Of a stretch of 64,000 nt of DNA, positions 11,550-37,633 are shown piece after piece (positions within the stretch are counted from its first letter, which is position 1; the number at the start of each line of letters is the position of its first letter). This stretch comes from a bacterium (lineage in GTDB: Bacteria > Bacteroidota > Bacteroidia > Chitinophagales > JADIYW01). The notes under the pieces were generated by a model that was not told where the DNA came from, did no database searches, and worked only from the letters and a program-made list of their open reading frames with translations. The stretch is from NCBI GenBank assembly GCA_037189845.1, contig JBBCIS010000008.1, positions 120,645 through 184,644 on the forward strand, in the 5' to 3' direction. Made by a program: the position numbers and the translations under genes.

Positions 11550-12443
11550 TTATCTGGCTAATCTGAATTTTATGGGTACGGTCATTCGTGTTGTCACGGG
11601 CTTGTCATTATATATTGCCGGAATCCAATTGTCCTTCGTTAATTTCATTACACGCAATGCTTCTTCGCTCAACCCATCTTTGATACCTTCTTTGATCTCA
11701 AAATTATGGGCATTGCCCTCTTTGTCTATAACGAAAGTGATAATTACGGTTCCCTGTGTACCATTATCCAAAGCCATTTCCGGGTATCTGATATTGTAAT
11801 TTATGTGTGACATCATCTCACTTTTATCCCCTAAATATAGTGCTGGTCTGTCTAATTTTACTTCGATCACCCCCTCATCAGTAATTACTTCTGTCTCAAC
11901 ATCAGACTGGTTATCAGTAGGATTTTTATAAAATAAAAGTTCCTTGGTGTTGAAATTGTATTTTTGAATCAATCCTGATTGTTCATCAAAAAATTCCCAG
12001 ATTCCGATTCTTATATCTTCTTTGTAATTTCCCTGATTTCTAAGAGAAATTCCGTCTGAAAAGTAGGTTTTCCATTGTTCGCTCTTTTTGCCATCATGAT
12101 AGTTACCCTGGCTTTTGATTTTTCCTTTGTAACCATATTCTGTCCAAAGCCCTTCCTTTTTGTCATTTCTATAATGTCCCCTAGTATTGATCGTTCCACT
12201 ATAACCGTATTCTGTCCACAGGCTGTCTTTTAATCCATCTTTGTAATATCCTTCGATTTTCAATTTGTTATTACCATACTTCTGATATAAACCATGTTTG
12301 ATGTCCGGATTACTTTTTAAAACATAATAAACTTCGCTGTCATAAGACTTCTTAGGGCCGGTGGTGATTTTTATAGTTTCTTGTCCGAAAATATTCAGGC
12401 AGAAACCTGCAAAAAATAGAAATAATAAAATATAATCTTTCAT
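11550..12443 (-). CDS. Exported MORN-variant repeat protein with C-terminal TonB_C domain (paralog 1)
   Basis: Signal peptide; repeats such as GYYKDGLKDSLWTEY and GHYRNDKKEGLWTEY; TonB_C: IRYPEMALDNGTQGTVIITFVIDKEG...WIPA...PIKF. Confidence 0.85.
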   Translation of the reverse strand: MKDYILLFLFFAGFCLNIFGQETIKITTGPKKSYDSEVYYVLKSNPDIKHGLYQKYGNNKLKIEGYYKDGLKDSLWTEYGYSGTINTRGHYRNDKKEGLWTEYGYKGKIKSQGNYHDGKKSEQWKTYFSDGISLRNQGNYKEDIRIGIWEFFDEQSGLIQKYNFNTKELLFYKNPTDNQSDVETEVITDEGVIEVKLDRPALYLGDKSEMMSHINYNIRYPEMALDNGTQGTVIITFVIDKEGNAHNFEIKEGIKDGLSEEALRVMKLTKDNWIPAIYNDKPVTTRMTVPIKFRLAR

Positions 12444-12543
12444 GACTACAAGATATGCTTTTTATCATCTTTAGTCTATCAGTACTGTTTTAGAATGGGA
12501 TATTAAAAAACAGAGATCAGACATCTAAATCTTCTCTAACAAC

Positions 12544-13065
12544 TTAATCTTTTTCTATTAATCTGTTAAGGTCAAGTTTAAAACCGAAGAAACTTTGCAT
12601 GAGCGATTGGTCAACTCCCGCTTCTATCGTTTCAGCGTTTTTCCCTATCAGAGAGAATTTCCATTTTGATAATAGATCATACAATTCCTCTTCACAGAGT
12701 ATGTGTTTGAAATCTTTTAAATGTACATCACGATAACCGAAATCAGATCCGGCGTTGTAATCTGGGCCATAATGTATCCATGAATGAAACCATGTGTCAT
12801 ATGGTTTTTGATTCGTAAACATCTGACTGATATAGTACCTGGAATTACCTGTAGAATCGGTATAATTGAGTAAGTTAATACACAATTTTACTTTTACACC
12901 GCTGTCATACTTTTTGTAAGTCCAAGCCAGAACTAATGATAAATCATTTTCCTTGTCCCATTTGTTTTTAGGGAATTCAGTTGCAGCAATTATTGGATGA
13001 TTTTCCCGCTGTCCTTGTGCGGAAAAAGAAATTACAAGAGAAAGTAATAAAAACAAAATTCTCAT
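12544..13065 (-). CDS. Hypothetical exported protein
   Basis: 173-aa ORF with signal peptide (SFSAQG), between the two TonB_C paralogs. Confidence 0.7.
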   Translation of the reverse strand: MRILFLLLSLVISFSAQGQRENHPIIAATEFPKNKWDKENDLSLVLAWTYKKYDSGVKVKLCINLLNYTDSTGNSRYYISQMFTNQKPYDTWFHSWIHYGPDYNAGSDFGYRDVHLKDFKHILCEEELYDLLSKWKFSLIGKNAETIEAGVDQSLMQSFFGFKLDLNRLIEKD

Positions 13066-13068
13066 GGC

Positions 13069-14019
13069 TTATCTGCCTAATATGAATCTGATAGGTGCGG
13101 AAAATTTGACCCTGGATATTTCACCATCATGAATAGCCGGAAGCCAGCTGCCGGAAGTGAGTTGAATGACTCTGATACTTTCTTTATCTAATCCATATCC
13201 GACAGGTTTTTCTACTTCCACATTGCTAACAGTTCCGTCTTTCTCAACCACAAATGCAACGATTACGTTACCCTCAACACCATTATCCATCGCTAATTCG
13301 GGATATTTTACATTGCTTTGTATATGTCGCATGAACTCTTGGATACCTCCGATAAATGTCGGTATCCTTTCGACATTTATGGTAATACTTCCACTATCGG
13401 TTTTAACTGTAAGTTGTTGGTTGGGTACTTTTTCAATATAAAGTAGTTCTTTTTTGTCGTAGTCGTATTTTTGCATTAAAGAACCATCAGGATTATAAAA
13501 TTCCCAAATGCCGGTTTTTTTGTTGTTGTAATATTCTCCTTTACTTTCAATCTTTTCATTGTTGTAATAGCTGGTGCTGAGACCGTTTCTATTGTCTTTA
13601 CGATAAAAATCTTTCTGCAACAGAACCCCAGAAGTCGAATATGTGATCCAAATACTGTCTTTTACTCCACGTTTATAAAATCCTTCAGTGTTTTTTATCC
13701 CAGAATTATAATATTTTATAGATAGGCCGTGTAAGTGTCCGTCTTGATAATGATTTTGGGAAAGAGGGATTCCATCGTATCGGTATTCCGTCCAAAGACT
13801 GTCTTTTTCTCCATTTTTATAATATCCCGTAATTTCCAGGCGATCTTTGTATCCGAATTTCTGATAAGGCCCGTGTTTTACGCTCTTATCTTTTTTTAAA
13901 ACATAGTAAATCTCTTTCGTATAAGATTTTTTGGTTGCATCTACTATTTTGACGGTTTCCTGTGCGGAAACTCCCAGCGCAGAAAAAGTAAAAATCAGGA
14001 ATGCGAAAATTGTTTTCAT
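13069..14019 (-). CDS. Exported MORN-variant repeat protein with C-terminal TonB_C domain (paralog 2)
   Basis: Signal peptide; GYYKNGEKDSLWTEY-type repeats; VKYPELAMDNGVEGNVIVAFVVEKDG...WLPA...PIRF. Confidence 0.85.
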   Translation of the reverse strand: MKTIFAFLIFTFSALGVSAQETVKIVDATKKSYTKEIYYVLKKDKSVKHGPYQKFGYKDRLEITGYYKNGEKDSLWTEYRYDGIPLSQNHYQDGHLHGLSIKYYNSGIKNTEGFYKRGVKDSIWITYSTSGVLLQKDFYRKDNRNGLSTSYYNNEKIESKGEYYNNKKTGIWEFYNPDGSLMQKYDYDKKELLYIEKVPNQQLTVKTDSGSITINVERIPTFIGGIQEFMRHIQSNVKYPELAMDNGVEGNVIVAFVVEKDGTVSNVEVEKPVGYGLDKESIRVIQLTSGSWLPAIHDGEISRVKFSAPIRFILGR

Positions 14020-14033
14020 AAATTCAATATCAG

Positions 14034-15722
14034 TTAAGGATTAAATTTAACTGCTGCTGTATCATACAGGAAGTACCACTCATCTGCAACCATTACTTTT
14101 TTATAGCCACGGTCAGGATAATCTGTCAGGAATTTCTGCCATTCCGGGTCAAATAAATATCTGTCGTCGTACAAAAACAGCGGAGTGACATAATACATCT
14201 GAGTTTTCAGACTGTCAGCAAAATGCTCAAAGCTGGTCTTTTTCCATACTGCAGGTGTCCATTTATAGTGAATGGCTTTGTCCTGTGGAATAAAACAGAT
14301 GATACCGCCTTCGTTTTCGGAGATAGCAACAGTATCTTTCAATGGTGTGAATTTTTCCAATACTTTTGCTGCCCGCGCATTAAAGTTGCCTTTAGGTTCC
14401 CTGAAATTGTCAAAATAGGGGCGGCTTTTTGCACTGGGAGCCAGTATAATCAGCAGGAATACAAATATCGAAACCAATCCCAGCCGCTCTCTGGTAGCCA
14501 CAGGATTTTTCCAGCCGGTAAATCCATACGAAAGTGTCAGTATCAGTGTCAATAGGAGGATCAGCTGCAATACCATATAATGTTCTCTCGGGAAGATCAC
14601 TATGACGGAGATAAATGTAGGACTTACAACTATGGCCAGTAGCAACCAGTCCCATCCGTGAGATTTGAATTTAGTCCACCAGTTTTTAAAGCTGAACATT
14701 TTCAATGCGAATAAAGCGATCAACACCAACCCAAGAATGATGGTTCTCGGAATTTCTTTTAGCTTGAAAATGGATTCAGGAAGAAAAATATCTGTGTAAA
14801 ATTTCCATACATTTTCCAGGTAATGAGTGAAGTTGTATGCGAAGTGATGATAAATGGGAGCAGGATTGGCTTTGATTGCGTCACCAATATTTGCAACATC
14901 TCCGAAAACTTCTTTGATGATGATATCTGCATGTAGCTGCCATCTGTCGGGTCTTAAATCATTCCAGATGGTATAATTATAGGCAAAATGCTGCCCGAAT
15001 GCCGCGACAGCTCTGCCTCCTTCACCTTCAAAATTAAATAAAGGATTACCCAGCCATTTTTGTAATCCGACAGTTCCTATAATCAGAATAACAAACAATG
15101 CCCAGGTGAATTTCTCAATTTTTATCTTTTTGAAGAGCTGATATACCAGCAGTGAAATAATGATGATAAACAGCAGTAAATAACCCAGATACAGCTCCGG
15201 ACGCATGTACGATGCGAAAATAACTCCTCCGGCAATAATGATCACCTGGTCAATCCTCCTTTTGAAGAATGTGGAAACGACAAATGTCAGGGCAATCAGT
15301 GTTGTTGTGAAAAGTGAGATTTTAGGCCAGGAATAAAAGTTAATGTGAGATGCAATATAAAACATGGCAATCACCGCCGATACTAATGGCCTGATGCCTA
15401 TTCTGGTCCAGTAAATATAAAATAATACCCCGGGAACAACAGTCAGTACCTGAAAATTGAGGAGGTAGAGGTTCAGCGGATGAGATTGAAAAAAGTGTAA
15501 AAAATAATACCATGCTGCATAAATGGGTCCCCAGGCTTTCTGAAGCTTTGTTGCAAACAAAAGTCCGTTCTGCATATATAGACCTTCATCCCATCCCAGC
15601 ACGTCGGTAAATTCAGGAATTCTCCAGACACAAATAATTCCAAATGCAATGACAGCTATAAGTAAATACAAAAACATCAGCTTCGATGTTTTGGAAGAGG
15701 AGTTTACTATTTTCAGATTCAT
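14034..15722 (-). CDS. Polytopic membrane protein, putative GT-C fold glycosyltransferase
   Basis: Many TM helices; DE motif (GWDEGLY) in the first loop after TM1; soluble C-terminal domain. Confidence 0.55.
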   Translation of the reverse strand: MNLKIVNSSSKTSKLMFLYLLIAVIAFGIICVWRIPEFTDVLGWDEGLYMQNGLLFATKLQKAWGPIYAAWYYFLHFFQSHPLNLYLLNFQVLTVVPGVLFYIYWTRIGIRPLVSAVIAMFYIASHINFYSWPKISLFTTTLIALTFVVSTFFKRRIDQVIIIAGGVIFASYMRPELYLGYLLLFIIIISLLVYQLFKKIKIEKFTWALFVILIIGTVGLQKWLGNPLFNFEGEGGRAVAAFGQHFAYNYTIWNDLRPDRWQLHADIIIKEVFGDVANIGDAIKANPAPIYHHFAYNFTHYLENVWKFYTDIFLPESIFKLKEIPRTIILGLVLIALFALKMFSFKNWWTKFKSHGWDWLLLAIVVSPTFISVIVIFPREHYMVLQLILLLTLILTLSYGFTGWKNPVATRERLGLVSIFVFLLIILAPSAKSRPYFDNFREPKGNFNARAAKVLEKFTPLKDTVAISENEGGIICFIPQDKAIHYKWTPAVWKKTSFEHFADSLKTQMYYVTPLFLYDDRYLFDPEWQKFLTDYPDRGYKKVMVADEWYFLYDTAAVKFNP

Positions 15723-15826
15723 CTACCCAAAAATACTGATTTTATATGTGAACATTTTCTTAAAGTGGATAAGAAACAACCGTTTACTCTCAATTTTAAA
15801 TACTTTTATACAATAATTTTTAGAGT

Positions 15827-16981
15827 ATGTTTAAAAGGATATCTTATTTGTTTCTGATAACAATATTAATGACCTCCTGTACCGTGTTACAGCAGGCAGC
15901 TGAAAAGCAAAAACAAAATCAGCAAAAACAAAAAGAAAAACAAGCCGGAGGTGGTGGCGGTGCCAGAACCGGGCAGGCCGACAACAAGAACCGGGATGAT
16001 TATAACCCCGACGGTACAAGATACAGAGATAAGGTGTTCAATGAATTTGATGTCACCAGTGAAACATTTCTGACAGGTGTGCCTACCTGGAATGATGGAA
16101 AGACAGACCTGACAATAGATATTTATACTCCTAAAAATGATCAGATTTCAACCGGAAGGCCTTGTATTATATTCTACTTTGGAGGAGCGTGGGCTTCTAA
16201 AATGAAACAAGGCTTTGATGTATTCAACAGTGAGCTGGCCATGAGAGGATATGTGGCTATTTCCGGTGATTACAGAGTAGGGTTTTTACAGTCAAATTTA
16301 GCTATAGGATGTATTGGAGATATAGAAAAAAATATGACTGAGGCAGCGTTCAGAGGTTTTCAGGATACAAAAGCACTCATCAGACACGTACGTGCCAATG
16401 CTGCTAAATACGGGGTTGATCCGAATAAAATCTATGTAGCAGGTGGTAGTGCAGGAGGTGCAAATGCTCTGGGAGCTTTATATTTTCAGGATAATGAAGT
16501 TCCATCTGATATCGCCAGAAGTATCGGGAGTCTTGAATCTATCGGGAATTACAGAAATGTAAGCTCTAAGCCCAATGGCGTGATTACACTGGCAGGCCCT
16601 TTATTTGGTGGTCCGGAGGTGATAGAAAAGCAGAATGTACCGGTTTATCTTTTACAGGGACAATGTGATGAATTAATTCCATGGAATTATGCAAAAGCTT
16701 TTCCTCATTGCAAAAACAATAGTAAAATACCTACAGTAATGGGTTGTAATGCGTTGTATGAAAGGCTGAAAGCAGTAGGAGAGACAGTATGGTTTGATGT
16801 AGTATGCGGTGGAGGTCATGGATCATTTGAGTGGGGAATGGTGGAGCTCAACAGAAGGATGTCAAATTTTTGTTACTTAGTCATGAACAATCAAATGAGA
16901 ACCGGTGATTTTATCTTTATGCCGGCAAAAGTTACTTGTCCAGGAAAAACATTCCCGGAATGTGAAAAGTGGAAGAAATAA
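15827..16981 (+). CDS. Alpha/beta-hydrolase (carboxylesterase-like) lipoprotein
   Basis: Lipobox MTSC; FGGAW oxyanion region, GGSAGG nucleophile elbow, GQCD and GGGHG. Confidence 0.85.
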   Translation: MFKRISYLFLITILMTSCTVLQQAAEKQKQNQQKQKEKQAGGGGGARTGQADNKNRDDYNPDGTRYRDKVFNEFDVTSETFLTGVPTWNDGKTDLTIDIYTPKNDQISTGRPCIIFYFGGAWASKMKQGFDVFNSELAMRGYVAISGDYRVGFLQSNLAIGCIGDIEKNMTEAAFRGFQDTKALIRHVRANAAKYGVDPNKIYVAGGSAGGANALGALYFQDNEVPSDIARSIGSLESIGNYRNVSSKPNGVITLAGPLFGGPEVIEKQNVPVYLLQGQCDELIPWNYAKAFPHCKNNSKIPTVMGCNALYERLKAVGETVWFDVVCGGGHGSFEWGMVELNRRMSNFCYLVMNNQMRTGDFIFMPAKVTCPGKTFPECEKWKK

Positions 16982-32210: not shown

Positions 32211-33611
32211 TCATTCGGTGCCCGGAAAAACAGTGAGTACCTGATTTTTATACAAGACAATTTTAGTTTTTCTTTTTCCAAAGATTTTGATGACAGGCTG
32301 ATTTTCTACAGGATAATCTCTCATATCATTACAAACAGGGCTGTATGCTATGTAAGAGTAATCTCTGATAGAGAATTCAGAAATATCTTTTAATCTTTCT
32401 CCCGAAGTCAAATCCGTTTGTTGCTGACTGCAAAATAACGGAAATGCCGACGCTATTTCTCCTGGTGGAATATCGTATTCGGAGATATAGCGGAAAAAAT
32501 CTTTCCTGCTTTTCTCATAAGAAAGATACTGCAAAGTGACATCCCAGCCATTGCTCAGCTGAATAGGGTACAACCAGAAATGTCCTGAAATAAATGCAGC
32601 CAAAGTAATAGCTACCCAGAATTTGCTGAAAGCAATCTGCTTCCATTGAGAAATGATCAGGAATATCATTCCGACATGAATGATCATGAAATATCTGTGG
32701 CCGATAGGATTGCTGAATAGCAACATGCTGGTATTGAGCACGATGAATATCAATGTGGTAGTGAAAAGGATCTTTCGGATATTACCGGATAGCGGCTTTG
32801 CCCTGATGGTGGTGACAGCACATAAAAACAATATGCTTAAAGGAAGGAGCCCATAGTCTACAAATCCTCTGGTAATGCCGATGACATTACTGAGTAGCTG
32901 TTGGATAGAGGCTACATCTCTGTGTGTTTTCCAGGAGTCAGAAGGAGTGGAGATCATCCATCCTGTCTGATCATAATGATAAAAATGCCATAGTAAGAGC
33001 GGTATACATGCTGCTGTCAGAAGTATGATATTATTTCTCCAGTTCCTAAAATCAGTAATGAGATAACTGCCCAGGCAAACTATTCCGATCATTTGTCCCC
33101 GGATACTACATGCACTTAATCCCCATATGCCCATGAGAAGCCAGAAATTTCTTTTCTCTATTATTCCGATGATTGCTGTCAGAAAGAATGCAATTTGTAT
33201 GATATCATAAGACATCATAGTGGATTGAGTCAGGATATAAGGATGCAGTAACAGAAATAATAGCCCAACGATTCTGGCAATGGAAAATGTGGTGATTTTC
33301 TGGCAGATATAAACAAATGCGAAAACCATCAGCCATAAAAAAGGCAGCATGGCAATATGGCTTACAGCTAAAGTTTTGCCGAATATTTTCCAGCAGAACA
33401 TCAGGTATATCTGAAACAGGGTAGGATGTCCTGCATCCCATTTTAAAGGAGCTATGGCGTTTTGAATGCCGTTGTCATAGAACCACTGTGCTACGGAAGA
33501 TGTGAGAATCGTATCCCAAAAAAAAGGAACGTTCAGGCATAAGAGTATTACCGCCAGATAAAATCCGGCTCCGGCAGCAAATAATTTTTGACTGAGTGGA
33601 TCTAATCGCAT
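32211..33611 (-). CDS. Polytopic membrane protein, putative GT-C (ArnT/PMT-like) glycosyltransferase
   Basis: About ten TM helices; PFFWDT and AGHPT in the first loop; small C-terminal soluble domain. Confidence 0.55.
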   Translation of the reverse strand: MRLDPLSQKLFAAGAGFYLAVILLCLNVPFFWDTILTSSVAQWFYDNGIQNAIAPLKWDAGHPTLFQIYLMFCWKIFGKTLAVSHIAMLPFLWLMVFAFVYICQKITTFSIARIVGLLFLLLHPYILTQSTMMSYDIIQIAFFLTAIIGIIEKRNFWLLMGIWGLSACSIRGQMIGIVCLGSYLITDFRNWRNNIILLTAACIPLLLWHFYHYDQTGWMISTPSDSWKTHRDVASIQQLLSNVIGITRGFVDYGLLPLSILFLCAVTTIRAKPLSGNIRKILFTTTLIFIVLNTSMLLFSNPIGHRYFMIIHVGMIFLIISQWKQIAFSKFWVAITLAAFISGHFWLYPIQLSNGWDVTLQYLSYEKSRKDFFRYISEYDIPPGEIASAFPLFCSQQQTDLTSGERLKDISEFSIRDYSYIAYSPVCNDMRDYPVENQPVIKIFGKRKTKIVLYKNQVLTVFPGTE

Positions 33612-33696: not shown

Positions 33697-33750
33697 TAGC
33701 ACAAAGCTTCAAGCTTGCACGTCAGCCATTTGGTGCAAGCGGTTTTTTAT
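33697..33750 (-). repeat. Degenerate remnant of an attC-like repeat or terminator hairpin downstream of the RelA/SpoT cassette
   Basis: GCTTGCAC-12nt-GTGCAAGC hairpin; minus strand TGACGTGCAAGCTTGAAGCTTTGTGC resembles, from memory, the interior of Bacteroidota cassette repeats. Confidence 0.35.
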
Positions 33751-33824
33751 TTTCAGTTGTCTATTGTATATTGAAAGTTTCTTTGATTCTAAAATAGAAG
33801 TTTGGAGGATAGGGGACAAACGAA

Positions 33825-34772
33825 TTATTGGATAAATGCATAATAATTATCATCTACTAACTCTAACACCGTTCTTGCAGCACCTGTTTGCCCCCACATA
33901 AACTCGCCTTCTTTGAGTTCGCTTTCAAAGAAAAAATTAGCCTCTTCCTTTTCAACTTCACAATAAATATCCTTAACTTTTTCATACCCATCTGTCAAAA
34001 CTTTTAAGGAAATATTGTTCTCTTTCATTTCTTCAAAAAGTTTACTTGTACTCTTTATGTTTTTTCCTCGATTACCAAAAGCATAGTCTAAAAAAGCTTG
34101 TAAACTATCAAGGTTAAATTCCACATTATAACTAAATGCATTTGCTTCTTTCGCAGACTCAATTAAGATACTGTTGTTAATCTCTATTTGATTTTTTATT
34201 TCTTCAAACTGCTCATCCGATTCTTCAAGTTTAGCGCTAATCCTAGATAATTTACGTCTGAACTCTATTGGCACTTGAGATTCCGACTTATGTTCAATTT
34301 CAGCCCAAGCATGCATTAAAACCGTTCTTATTTGTAATTCAGCTTTTAGATTTTCTAAACCTCTATAATTAGGAGCATTTAACCAATTTTTTTTGATTTT
34401 AACTACAAAGTGATGGGATCGGTATCCAAATTGGTCATAGTCTAGATTTTCAATTTTATTCTCATCAAAAGTGCTATTGAATTCCTTTCTAACAATTTTC
34501 TTTATTTTATCTATATCACTTTGATAGTAACAAATAATTCTAACTCCACAAATATCTTCGATTTCACTGAATGGATCTTGATAGCTTTTACGTTGAATTT
34601 TGCCAATAAAAGAATCAGAATCTTTAGTTCTGTAATTAATTGATAAGTAAGGAATACTATTTTCCTTTAATAATAATTCTAAAGCCTGCGAAATATTATA
34701 ACCTAGTTTTTCATACCTCTCGTACAACTCTTTATAAGACTGAGAGATCAAAGAAAGATCGAGTTTTTTCAT
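33825..34772 (-). CDS. RelA/SpoT-domain protein (small alarmone synthetase-like) with an in-frame loss in the EHxxxYK motif
   Basis: YRTKDSDSFIGK, IEDICGVRII, FGYRSHHFVV, ELQIRTVLMHAWAEIEHK directly followed by SESQ. Confidence 0.85.
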   Translation of the reverse strand: MKKLDLSLISQSYKELYERYEKLGYNISQALELLLKENSIPYLSINYRTKDSDSFIGKIQRKSYQDPFSEIEDICGVRIICYYQSDIDKIKKIVRKEFNSTFDENKIENLDYDQFGYRSHHFVVKIKKNWLNAPNYRGLENLKAELQIRTVLMHAWAEIEHKSESQVPIEFRRKLSRISAKLEESDEQFEEIKNQIEINNSILIESAKEANAFSYNVEFNLDSLQAFLDYAFGNRGKNIKSTSKLFEEMKENNISLKVLTDGYEKVKDIYCEVEKEEANFFFESELKEGEFMWGQTGAARTVLELVDDNYYAFIQ

Positions 34773-34805
34773 TCTTAAAATTTATAATACTATTCCTCAA
34801 ATGGC

Positions 34806-34937
34806 GCATTACGTTTCGGGGCTTTGCGATGGTGGGGCAATCGAAGTGGAAAACTTCAATTTTTCACAAAAGTTGAACCGAAGAACAACTTTTGAAAGTT
34901 GCAGTTTCGCCCCACTATTGCAAAACCCTTGTTATGC
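34806..34937 (-). mobile_element. attC-like integron cassette recombination site (132-bp imperfect hairpin)
   Basis: Minus strand GCATAAC (R'')...GGTTTTGC AATAGTGGGC...AAAAGTTG/CAACTTTT...GCCCCACCATC GCAAAGCC...GTAATGC (R', GTT mutated to GTA); lies exactly between the AbiH stop and the SAS start. Confidence 0.7.
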
Positions 34938-34955
34938 GACGTTCTTTTTTGATTA

Positions 34956-35908
34956 TTAAAGGAGTTTTAATTGAGTGTCTTCGATTTCTAATTCGGTGCA
35001 ATGCTTATAGGTTAAAAATTGTTCATCAATGTTAAGTTCTTGCATTATTTTTTTGCTGATTGTATATCATTCTCAGAATAATAGTATAAAGTCCATTTTA
35101 ATGAATTACCTTTTATTTCTGATATTTTTTTAAAATACGGAAAATCAATTTGATTGTAAGAATGACCTAATACAACAATTTCATCAACACTTTTTAATTC
35201 ATTAAAATACTCAGAATTATTTTCTATAACTGTTTCGGTTGGTTTTCTCATCATATCGTAAAATGAGGAAACTGCATTTTCTGCAAACTTTTCGTGTCCT
35301 ACTTCTCCAGATTCGACATTGCCATCTTCATCGATTGTAAGAAAGGCATTTTCATCACCATATAACGCTTGTCTAACATTGAAATCCTCAGATTTTTTTC
35401 CGTGTCCAAAAATCAATTCTTCACCAACTTTATTATGTATGTGTAAAATATTGCTTAATGGAATTCTGTAGGTATGTTCTAAAATTTCGGTGTAGTTAAA
35501 AGTGATGTAATAATCAGATTTATCCAATTTGTAAGTTCTTTTAACTTCTTCAATCTCTAACGAGTTAATCCATTCTTCAAAGCCATTTCTAATATTTTTT
35601 AAAAGTTCCTCACATTCTTGTTCAACATAAATCTGTGCATCATTCCAATCACCATCTCTAAAGTCGTCGGATGCAAAATTTGGGCTATTTTCACCAATAA
35701 TATCGGTTATTGAATCATAAATAATATCTTTTTCTAAACTTGTTTAAAAGTCAGACCACAAGTCAGAATCACTTTCAACGGAATAAAACGTTTCCATTGC
35801 CTCTAAAATATCAGTTCTATTTTCATTTAGATAAACGTAAAAATCAGAATATTTGCAAGCTATTTTGTGACTTATATCGAAGCCGTTTCCTAGAATAAAT
35901 AATTTCAT
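34956..35908 (-). pseudogene. AbiH-family abortive infection protein, disrupted
   Basis: MKLFILGNGFDISH N-terminal motif, ITFNYT, IVVLGHS; in-frame TAA at 35744-35746 (WSDF*TSL) and a frameshift at the A7 run near 35048-35054; repaired frame ends at TAA 34956. Confidence 0.8.
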
Positions 35909-35950
35909 TGTTCTCTTGTTGTTTGTTGGTTTGCCTGCGTTAGAATGACA

Positions 35951-35981
35951 CATAACGTTTGTGTTTGCGCCATATGGCGTT
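35951..35981 (-). mobile_element. Half attC-like or attI-like site at the 5' end of the cassette array
   Basis: Minus strand CGCCATATGGCG CAAACACAAAC GTTATGT matches the right end of the 34806-34937 site (GCAAAGCCCCGAAAC GTAATGC). Confidence 0.5.
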
Positions 35982-36336
35982 AATCTCCCTTATAATTATC
36001 TTCCAAGAAGATTGACAAAATCTCATTGAAGGCTGTAATATAAAAAGGAGAAAAGAAAGATATTGTATTTTAATCGATAATTGTATCTATGTGAGTAACT
36101 AAATATGTGTTGTGTGTAGTTGAGTTTATTCATCTATATTCAGAGATTGCACAACTGTAAAGTGTCAGCACTTTTATAAAGTATGATAGTCGAGCGGAAT
36201 TGGCTTCGAAATGGTTCGATATACTCTCCACAAGTCCTCAGGCTCCGATTAGCAGCTCCGCTACAGCCCGGATAGAACGAAATATCACCCGCCGCACATA
36301 GCCTTGAGTAGCTTCGGCTTGATTCAATCACTAGAC

Positions 36337-36368
36337 TTCGACTCCGTGGTCAGTGAGCGGGAGTCGAA
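36337..36368. repeat. REP-like palindrome
   Basis: TTCGACTCC...GGAGTCGAA perfect 9-bp stem; related degenerate sequences near 36203-36250 and 46353-46375. Confidence 0.55.
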
Positions 36369-36799
36369 CTGCTCTGCCACCGTGGCGGGAAGATGTAGTG
36401 ATAGCCGGATTAGCTACCAACTTTGTATTCGCATTTTGAAGCTGTTGAAATTGTCATGCTCTTTCTGTGCTACTGGTCTGTTTATTTGTACTTATACCGA
36501 TTACATATCTGTAATAGTCCAATCTTGCCTTTGGCAAATTGTCCTAAACAGCTATTGTTCCGATACGAAAATGTAACAAGTCGCTACACGAACTGACATT
36601 TTTATCTATCGGAATTGGCATATCGGCATTAACCATTCTAAAATTTTAAAATAGTGTAAAATTAGAATTGGTATTATTCCCAAAACGCTGAGAAGATTTG
36701 AAATTATAGTGCAATATTTACTGTGTGTTTTCTGAAAAATGACCTGCATTGTCATGAACAATGATTCGGATCTTTTGTCAATAGTATTGAGTTATATCT

Positions 36800-37633
36800 A
36801 TGAAAAATAAACTTACGCTTGGTTTCTCGCCCTGTCCTAATGATACTTTTATCTTTGATGCCTTGATCCACCGGAAGATTGATACGAAAGGGCTGGAGTT
36901 TGAAGTGGTGATGGATGATGTGGAAGCGCTGAATAAAATGGCGGAGCAGGGGCAGCTGGATATTACGAAGCTGAGCTATCACGCTTTTGTGTATATGACA
37001 CAACAATATCAGCTTTTGCATGCCGGCAGTGCGCTGGGTCACGGATGTGGTCCTCTGTTGATAGCGAAAGAGAAACTGACAGAACGTCAAATCAATGAAG
37101 GACGGATTGCTATACCGGGAAAGCTGACTACGGCTAATTTTCTTTTGTCGGTGGCTTACCCAAAAGCGAAAAACAAGCAGAGTGTTTTGTTCTCAGAGGT
37201 AGAGAATGCTGTACTTTCGGGTGAGTATGATGCAGGATTGCTGATACATGAAAACCGTTTTACGTATGAGGAAAGAGGTCTGGTGAAAATCATTGATCTG
37301 GGAGATTATTGGGAAAATCTGACATGGTTGCCGATACCGTTAGGCGGAATTGTCATAAAAAGGGATTTTTCTCAGGAACAAAAACAGTTGGTATCGGATT
37401 TGATTCGCCAGAGTGTGGAGTTTGCATTTAAAAACACCGAACAAGCGATGCCTTTTATCCGCCAGTTTGCACAAGCGATGTCAGATGATGTGATGTTGAA
37501 GCACATAGGATTGTATGTGAATGAGTACAGTGTGGATTTAGGGGATAAGGGAAAAACTGCCGTTCAAAGATTATTTGATTCAGCAGTGGAAGCAGGTTTG
37601 GTAAAAGACTATACAACTCCGATCTGGATTTAA
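36800..37633 (+). CDS. mqnD: 1,4-dihydroxy-6-naphthoate synthase (futalosine pathway)
   Basis: LGFSPCPNDTFIF, DVEALN, GSALGHGCGP, LIHENRFTY, LPIPLGG, HIGLYVNEYS. Confidence 0.93.
   Translation: MKNKLTLGFSPCPNDTFIFDALIHRKIDTKGLEFEVVMDDVEALNKMAEQGQLDITKLSYHAFVYMTQQYQLLHAGSALGHGCGPLLIAKEKLTERQINEGRIAIPGKLTTANFLLSVAYPKAKNKQSVLFSEVENAVLSGEYDAGLLIHENRFTYEERGLVKIIDLGDYWENLTWLPIPLGGIVIKRDFSQEQKQLVSDLIRQSVEFAFKNTEQAMPFIRQFAQAMSDDVMLKHIGLYVNEYSVDLGDKGKTAVQRLFDSAVEAGLVKDYTTPIWI

Follow-up and report, generated by a model that had tools for sequence, protein, structure and literature searches.

What is the origin of an AT-rich stretch of 2.3 kb that separates two divergent housekeeping-type genes in a bacterium of the order Chitinophagales (Bacteroidota; GenBank assembly GCA_037189845.1, contig JBBCIS010000008.1), and that carries an AbiH-family gene and a RelA/SpoT-domain gene? 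The stretch lies at positions 33697 to 35981 of the window, by which we mean the whole segment of 64,000 nucleotides that was analysed (contig positions 120,645 to 184,644, forward strand); coordinates that begin with C refer to other positions in the same genome. An earlier note, made from the letters of this DNA alone, had described the stretch as a decaying, integrase-less array of two cassettes, resembling a cluster of attC sites lacking integron integrases (CALIN). We find that the insert is very probably the fossil of a small cassette array, derived from an integron-like capture system found widely in Bacteroidota and Chlorobi.

The insert and its complete hairpin

Read on the minus strand, the insert presents in this order a head site, the AbiH gene, a complete hairpin, the RelA/SpoT gene and one half of a second hairpin. 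The GC content is about 0.27-0.32 over 33750-36000 compared with about 0.40 on either side, in agreement with the AT-rich insert described earlier. Its two genes are co-directional, both on the minus strand, and with the same GC content of about 0.27-0.32 they lie below the limit of 41% that applies to runs of two or more co-directional genes in arrays of the rAID-1 type, a system discussed below.

The complete hairpin, a putative attC-like recombination site belonging to the first cassette (34797-34948, folded on the plus strand), was recognised by folding, by a covariance model (R1) built from six copies and by the covariation found in its family. The hairpin at 34806-34937 measures 126-132 nt. 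Folded as single-stranded DNA (ssDNA), the plus strand reaches −33.6 kcal/mol (z −5.3) and the minus strand −27.8 kcal/mol (z −3.6), while model R1 scores the plus strand at 162.7 bits and the minus at only 24.6; the hairpin that the earlier note had placed at 34806-34937 is thus confirmed. The two boxes at its ends are TTACG (34809-34813), for which the consensus is TAACG, and TGTTA (34930-34934). The difference from the consensus is due to base 34810, which is a T in place of an A, with the gene strand reading GTA instead of GTT, as had been noticed before. The corresponding column holds an A in 97% of 63 aligned copies, and the window copy alone is unpaired there.

A widespread family of strand-specific hairpins

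A BLAST search of the hairpin against its own genome returned only the hairpin itself, and Rfam contains no family for it. The single-copy result is not a refutation, because copies in relatives, nhmmer and the covariance model revealed a diverged family. Copies with 71-90% identity are present in relatives, between unrelated flanks. The genome-wide model search, which the earlier note had suggested, was extended to 401 genomes of the order and gave R1 matches in at least 258 of them, belonging to at least 99 of 158 genera, with at most seven candidates scored in each genome. In the genome under study, further, diverged hairpins were detected by nhmmer in two small arrays (C1:745500-752500 and C1:338000-341900).

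Arrays of these hairpins are found next to gene ends. In one relative (G189:C2:494-522 kb) at least 25 copies follow each other on the same strand with a spacing of 0.6-2.4 kb, and 15 of 17 hairpins are located from −16 to +61 nt from the stop codon of an open reading frame (ORF) on the opposite strand. In the window, the stop codon of the intact AbiH frame (34956-34958) is 7 nt away from the end of the hairpin model, and the RelA/SpoT gene starts 25 nt past the model end and 37 nt past the box. These distances support the earlier statement that gene ends abut the sites. The repeat is then a large family, which abuts gene ends in other genomes as well and is linked to a tyrosine recombinase, as described below.

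The structure was evaluated on an alignment of 63 copies from 12 genomes. Standard base pairs occupy 90% of the cells compared with 69% in shuffled alignments, and compensatory changes were observed in 27 of the 34 pairs. The covariation score is 0.50, a value reached by none of 500 shuffles (0.15), and controls with slid partners gave 0.06-0.10. The outer stem is nearly invariant, with 5'-TAACG conserved at 95-100% and TGTTA-3' at 84-100%. On the modelled strand two G.U pairs show no variation, and in their place the other strand would have C.A mismatches; it follows that the strand opposite to the genes is the one that folds. A folded strand that is antisense to the genes excludes an mRNA terminator and mirrors the folding of the bottom strand in attC sites. 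The family presents an imperfect palindrome, AAC/GTT ends and one strand that folds better than the other, which are the features by which attC-type sites are recognised.

Linkage of the hairpins to a tyrosine recombinase

The window contains no tyrosine recombinase gene, as the earlier note had stated. The search for an IntI-like gene elsewhere in the genome, proposed at the same time, gave a best score of 80 bits with the integron-integrase model, for a cut-off of 265. A true IntI, used as positive control, scored 421.6 bits; it is the only classical IntI in the 401 genomes of the order (locus L189, G047:C40:3592-4530) and belongs to a genome without any R1 hairpin.

The hairpin arrays are associated with another enzyme, a Xer/IntI-like tyrosine recombinase of 350-410 aa with an extra N-terminal domain. 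These array recombinases score 182-210 bits with TIGR02249 (cut-off 265) and about 200-222 bits with NF040815, and match the IntI model at positions 1-180 and 238-315 only. As model positions of about 181-237 are skipped, the insertion that is specific to IntI, its extra domain, is absent from them. The array recombinase is found in 206 of the 401 genomes, including all five same-genus relatives, where it is intact. In the genome under study there is no intact copy; the sole remnant is a frameshifted C-terminal pseudogene (C1:341471-341814), which heads a small array with R1 hairpins at C1:338-341.8 kb. Two Xer-like genes are intact in this genome (C14:32368-33252 and C3:516863-517687), and their products share 24-34% identity with the array recombinases and are devoid of the N-terminal domain.

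By genome, the co-occurrence of recombinase and hairpins has an odds ratio of 3.8 (p = 1e-9, with no correction for phylogeny). The strongest evidence for the tie between them is positional. We used 64 species-representative GTDB loci that encode relatives of the recombinase and come from Flavobacterium, Pedobacter, Daejeonella, Chitinophaga, Cecembia, metagenome-assembled genomes (MAGs) of Bacteroidales and Chlorobiaceae. At least one R1 match is present in 35 of the 64 loci, and the matches are 95 in total: all 95 are on the strand opposite to the recombinase and 93 are downstream of it. The same layout is observed in the same-genus genomes G003 and G004 and also in G340. R1-type hairpins follow homologous recombinases in four Bacteroidales MAGs (L130, L121, L200 and L204). 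The same recombinase family together with R1-type hairpins is found in five Chlorobiaceae MAGs (L216, L218, L219, L221 and L247), which extends the system beyond Bacteroidota.

Head site and cassette boundaries

The attI-like head site is located at 35951-35989 on the minus strand, where it reads GGGAGATTAACGCCATATGGCGCAAACACAAACGTTATG, with a presumed crossover triplet GTT at 35956-35954. The half site that the earlier note had recognised at 35951-35981, ending in ...GGnAGATnAACnCCATATGGCGCAAACACAAACGTTnTG, was found three times in the genome. One of the other copies (C1:341427-341469) lies directly past the 3' end of the recombinase pseudogene, which supports its assignment. The other (C8:647660-647702) heads another AT-rich gene run without recombinase: this copy is followed by three co-oriented genes with a GC content of 0.28-0.36 (C8:647561-649629), between which no R1 hairpins are detectable. 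The AAACGTTAT core is common to the head site and to the 3' ends of the hairpins.

Upstream of the head site, about 100 nt (35990-36094, minus strand) are common only to this second recombinase-less head (C8:647561-647660), and the region is 76% identical to C8:647561-647702. The segment 35990-36094 weakly resembles the ...SPFDDL-stop end of the recombinase genes from the same genus and may hold the vestige of a recombinase 3' end or a promoter.

The upstream boundary of the first cassette could be placed by comparison with an independent copy. A metagenome contig (L108), the only context of a cargo homologue that allowed such a comparison, carries an intact AbiH cassette, whose protein is 95% identical, with another cassette upstream of it. 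The nucleotide similarity with the window begins at AAAYGTTATG, spans the gene, continues into the hairpin and is lost in its distal arm. The point at which the similarity starts shows that the cassette is bounded upstream by the GTT core, like the cassettes of integrons.

Insertion between two flanking genes

The two genes that flank the insert are divergent. On the left, a gene called from its ORF (32211-33611, minus strand) encodes a polytopic membrane protein of 466 aa, the putative GT-C of the earlier note, which has no Pfam match at E 0.01. On the right is an mqnD-type gene of menaquinone biosynthesis (36800-37633, plus strand; PF02621, 7e-75). An empty site between them, another check suggested by the earlier note, was found in a genome of the same family (G013), in which the homologues of the membrane protein gene and of mqnD are only 85 bp apart. 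Therefore, the intervening DNA of the window is an insertion.

Two kinds of repeats were also seen between the head site and mqnD. A GC-rich block at 36200-36440 consists of short repeats that recur throughout the genome (e.g. C1:752679, C1:562806, C8:574854 and C1:420389). It includes a weak match to the Rfam family Flavo-1 at 36261-36415 on the plus strand (29 bits for a threshold of 42), and a copy at C9:5781-5903 passes this threshold; no consistent link between Flavo-1-type repeats and cassette arrays was seen. Closer to mqnD and upstream of it are two neighbouring intergenic repeat units of 60-80 nt (36483-36562 and 36620-36678). They have at least 10 copies in the genome, and the two units often recur together (C1:544374-544506, C8:213395-213537, C9:108418-108515, C1:448715-448848 and C1:752773-752900).

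Damage to the cargo genes and to the sites

The cargo of the first cassette is an AbiH-family pseudogene (34956-35908, minus strand), identified in two pieces by both PF14253 of Pfam and the AbiH model of PADLOC. It shares 88-95% identity with intact homologues of 317 aa. Comparison with these homologues and with the L108 nucleotides revealed two lesions, a TAA nonsense codon at 35744-35746 and the loss of a single base in the T-run at 35048-35054. The PF14253 profile is covered in two pieces, with the nonsense codon between them and the frameshift near the end, and there is no single open frame.

The cargo of the second cassette is a RelA/SpoT-domain gene resembling small alarmone synthetases (33825-34772, minus strand). 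Its ORF of 315 aa is open and matches PF04607 at 2e-21 and the PADLOC candidate family PDC-S33 at 8e-18, with a match to the YjbM-like NCBIfam model under the cut-off. Its relatives in the PDB are enzymes of the RelQ/RelP type; the protein bears a C-terminal extension of about 150 residues, and its sequence matches none of the CapRel-type structures. Next to eight homologues of 325-345 aa it is about 20 residues short at the C-terminus, and an in-frame deletion immediately after WAEIEH has removed four residues (KLAY) that do not vary among the eight.

Damage thus affects both cargo genes: AbiH carries a nonsense codon and a frameshift, RelA/SpoT a deletion and a truncation. The lesions reported earlier in both genes are real, with the distinction that AbiH is interrupted and RelA/SpoT is damaged yet uninterrupted. 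The Pfam and PADLOC matches assign both genes, as formerly proposed, to families linked to phage defence. Since both copies are damaged, the cargo in the window is most likely non-functional.

The second hairpin is represented by a remnant at 33697-33756 (plus strand), which the earlier note had listed as a degenerate repeat on the RelA/SpoT side. Window positions 33698-33727 are identical in 29 of 30 positions to G022:C1:96657-96686, inside a hairpin at 96620-96771. The remnant retains the 3' half of the folded strand, in which the motif of the central loop and the 3' arm can be recognised and the TGTTAT box reads TTTTAT; its 5' half is deleted. The covariance model alone, with filters off, did not detect it. 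A reading of 33715-33755 as an intrinsic terminator was rejected, given that the alignment derives this stretch from the 3' arm of a hairpin. Judging from the alignment, the remnant is the RelA/SpoT cassette's own putative site, cut by a deletion. The deletion that halved the hairpin explains the truncated C-terminal end of RelA/SpoT.

The array in the window is most likely immobile, because no intact recombinase is present in the genome, the complete hairpin carries the GTA change and the distal one is halved; these sequence features make a good case for the immobilisation suggested previously, and we infer that the array is not expressed. The description of a decaying, integrase-less array of two cassettes is likewise upheld by the loss of the recombinase, by the lesions in the genes and by the mutated and cut sites.

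Alternative explanations

The term CALIN-like implies a remnant of a classical integron, in which an ordinary attC site would be serviced by an IntI encoded elsewhere or by a mobile integron. The AAC...GTT ends, the imperfect palindrome with one better-folding strand and the co-oriented single-gene cassettes whose stop codons abut the site all agree with such an origin. We nevertheless regard it as hardly credible, as no protein of the genome reaches the IntI cut-off, the one IntI of the order is in a genome without R1 hairpins, and the recombinase that is linked to the arrays is devoid of the IntI extra domain. In addition, the IntegronFinder 2.0 survey found almost no integrons in Bacteroidetes (PMC9024848), and such near-zero numbers of integrons and CALINs would be impossible if sites as common as these fitted the attC model. 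The earlier label therefore holds for the remnant of a cassette array and fails for the classical integron or CALIN, considering the absence of the extra domain, the co-oriented layout and an IntI in only one genome of 401. A very improbable alternative is that no cassette system is involved, the hairpin being a non-autonomous repeat, similar to miniature inverted-repeat transposable elements (MITE) or repetitive extragenic palindromes (REP), a structured RNA or a terminator between defence genes that were acquired independently. The single BLAST hit and the resemblance of 33715-33755 to an intrinsic terminator on the plus strand speak for it, and folding alone does not separate RNA from DNA. 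The evidence against it is broader: the strand with the G.U pairs is antisense to the genes, the hairpins form ordered same-strand arrays that abut stop codons, every one of the 95 matches is oriented relative to the recombinase, and the independent copy in L108 has its cassette boundary at the GTT core. No Rfam family matches, and the hallmarks of MITE or REP elements, terminal duplications and dispersed near-identical copies, were not found, whereas diverged copies in ordered arrays at gene ends were.

The array could also be dormant rather than dead, with a housekeeping XerC/XerD-like recombinase of the genome or that of an incoming element moving the AbiH cassette in trans. The genome has two intact Xer-like genes, the array recombinases belong to a family close to Xer, and the head site, with three conserved copies, is intact. 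We consider this unlikely, as the Xer-like proteins are distant from the array recombinases (24-34% identity) and do not have their N-terminal domain, the sole complete hairpin is altered at a position that is an A in 97% of the 63 copies, half of the second hairpin is deleted, and the damage to both cargo genes argues for a long neutral decay.

Several observations weigh against the fossil of an integron-like cassette array that we prefer. Hairpins are present without a strong recombinase match in 96 genomes, and the recombinase without an R1 match in 44. Four genomes (G129, G029, G104 and G085) have the recombinase and the array transcribed divergently, the arrangement of classical integrons. 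The classic extrahelical G and T are not evident in the consensus hairpin, which instead has a C.A mismatch and a 4x1 internal loop. RelA/SpoT homologues with 67-69% identity are not adjacent to R1 hairpins, nor are AbiH homologues with 90% identity in Chryseobacterium-type arrays. Behind the intact recombinases of the same genus, only a short AAAC..GTT core of the head-site sequence was found. By analogy with attC, the recombinase most likely acts on the folded hairpin strand at GTT, although the substrate may be a duplex site or an RNA instead of ssDNA.

In G129 the divergent arrangement lies at 12381-15932 of locus L075 (G129:C28:78000-97000).

Organisation and proposed mechanism of the intact system

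At the head of an intact array of this integron-like system is a gene for the tyrosine recombinase related to Xer and IntI, with its extra N-terminal domain and without the extra domain of IntI, and directly behind its stop codon a head site with an AAAC-GTT core. Co-oriented AT-rich cassettes follow, each made of one gene or a few and then an imperfect hairpin, which is about 130-150 nt long and has nearly invariant TAACG...TGTTA ends. The hairpin would fold from the strand opposite to the genes and, in analogy with attC, would be recombined as ssDNA at GTT, a reaction that would insert cassettes at the head site and excise them between neighbouring hairpins.

Relation to known systems and significance

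Among published systems, rAID-1 (recombinase-associated acquired interbacterial defence) of gut Bacteroidales comes closest, the likeness being one of described architecture. In rAID-1 the stop codon of a 5' XerD-like recombinase is immediately followed by a motif, and the recombinase by co-directional low-GC genes, with intergenic repeats that were likened to integrons (Ross et al. 2019, bioRxiv 10.1101/471110). A follow-up of 2025 considered the mechanism of array formation as still open (PMC12247911). The intact relatives of the window array present the same architecture by description, and conserved intergenic repeats and a motif 3' of the recombinase stop are present here in form. There are also differences. 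rAID-1 was defined in Bacteroidales, while the present system is in a different order; its cargo consists of orphan type VI immunity genes, compared with AbiH and RelA/SpoT of the phage-defence type in the window; and it has a recombinase at the locus, which the window locus does not. The rAID-1 papers give sequence motifs only, and no covarying, strand-specific hairpin with AAC/GTT boxes. We found no paper on the hairpin structure, in Flavobacteriales either, or on the system in other orders.

Sedentary chromosomal integrons and CALINs, such as the array of Vibrio cholerae repeats (VCR), are alike in their co-oriented, mostly single-gene cassettes, in the imperfect hairpins with AAC...GTT ends whose better-folding strand is opposite to the genes, in the cassette boundary at GTT and in a head site beside the recombinase gene; integrons also carry defence cargo (bioRxiv 10.1101/2024.07.02.601686), like the array in the window. 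They differ in the recombinase, as IntI possesses the extra domain that the array recombinase is missing, and the latter has an extra N-terminal domain. They differ as well in the position of attI, which is 5' of a divergent intI, whereas here the head site is 3' of the recombinase and the array is usually co-oriented with it. Integron sites are conserved within one lineage and the hairpins described here across the phylum, and the extrahelical bases of integron attC sites are not evident in them. By profile, the window cargo also matches AbiH of abortive infection in Lactococcus and, for RelA/SpoT, toxic small alarmone synthetases and the candidate PDC-S33, although both copies are damaged.

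Taken together, we are inclined to think, with moderate confidence, that a sister of integrons, phylum-wide in extent, is proper to Bacteroidota and Chlorobi. Of this sister rAID-1 would be one branch, and elsewhere its cargo would include anti-phage genes; an IntI/Xer-related recombinase, with an N-terminal addition and no IntI extra domain, would act at GTT on the hairpin of about 130-150 nt, which is conserved and strand-specific. The window locus itself is a dead end, and its worth is that of a clean natural example of array decay and of a natural GTA variant of the site. The hairpin family supplies a concrete and testable recombination substrate for a system of the rAID type, and extends such a system to other orders and to Chlorobi, with cargo of the phage-defence type. 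If the integron-sister reading is true, the capture of cassettes through folded DNA would be possible without a domain that was thought to be essential, and a large share of cassette arrays would have been missed by the standard integron surveys.

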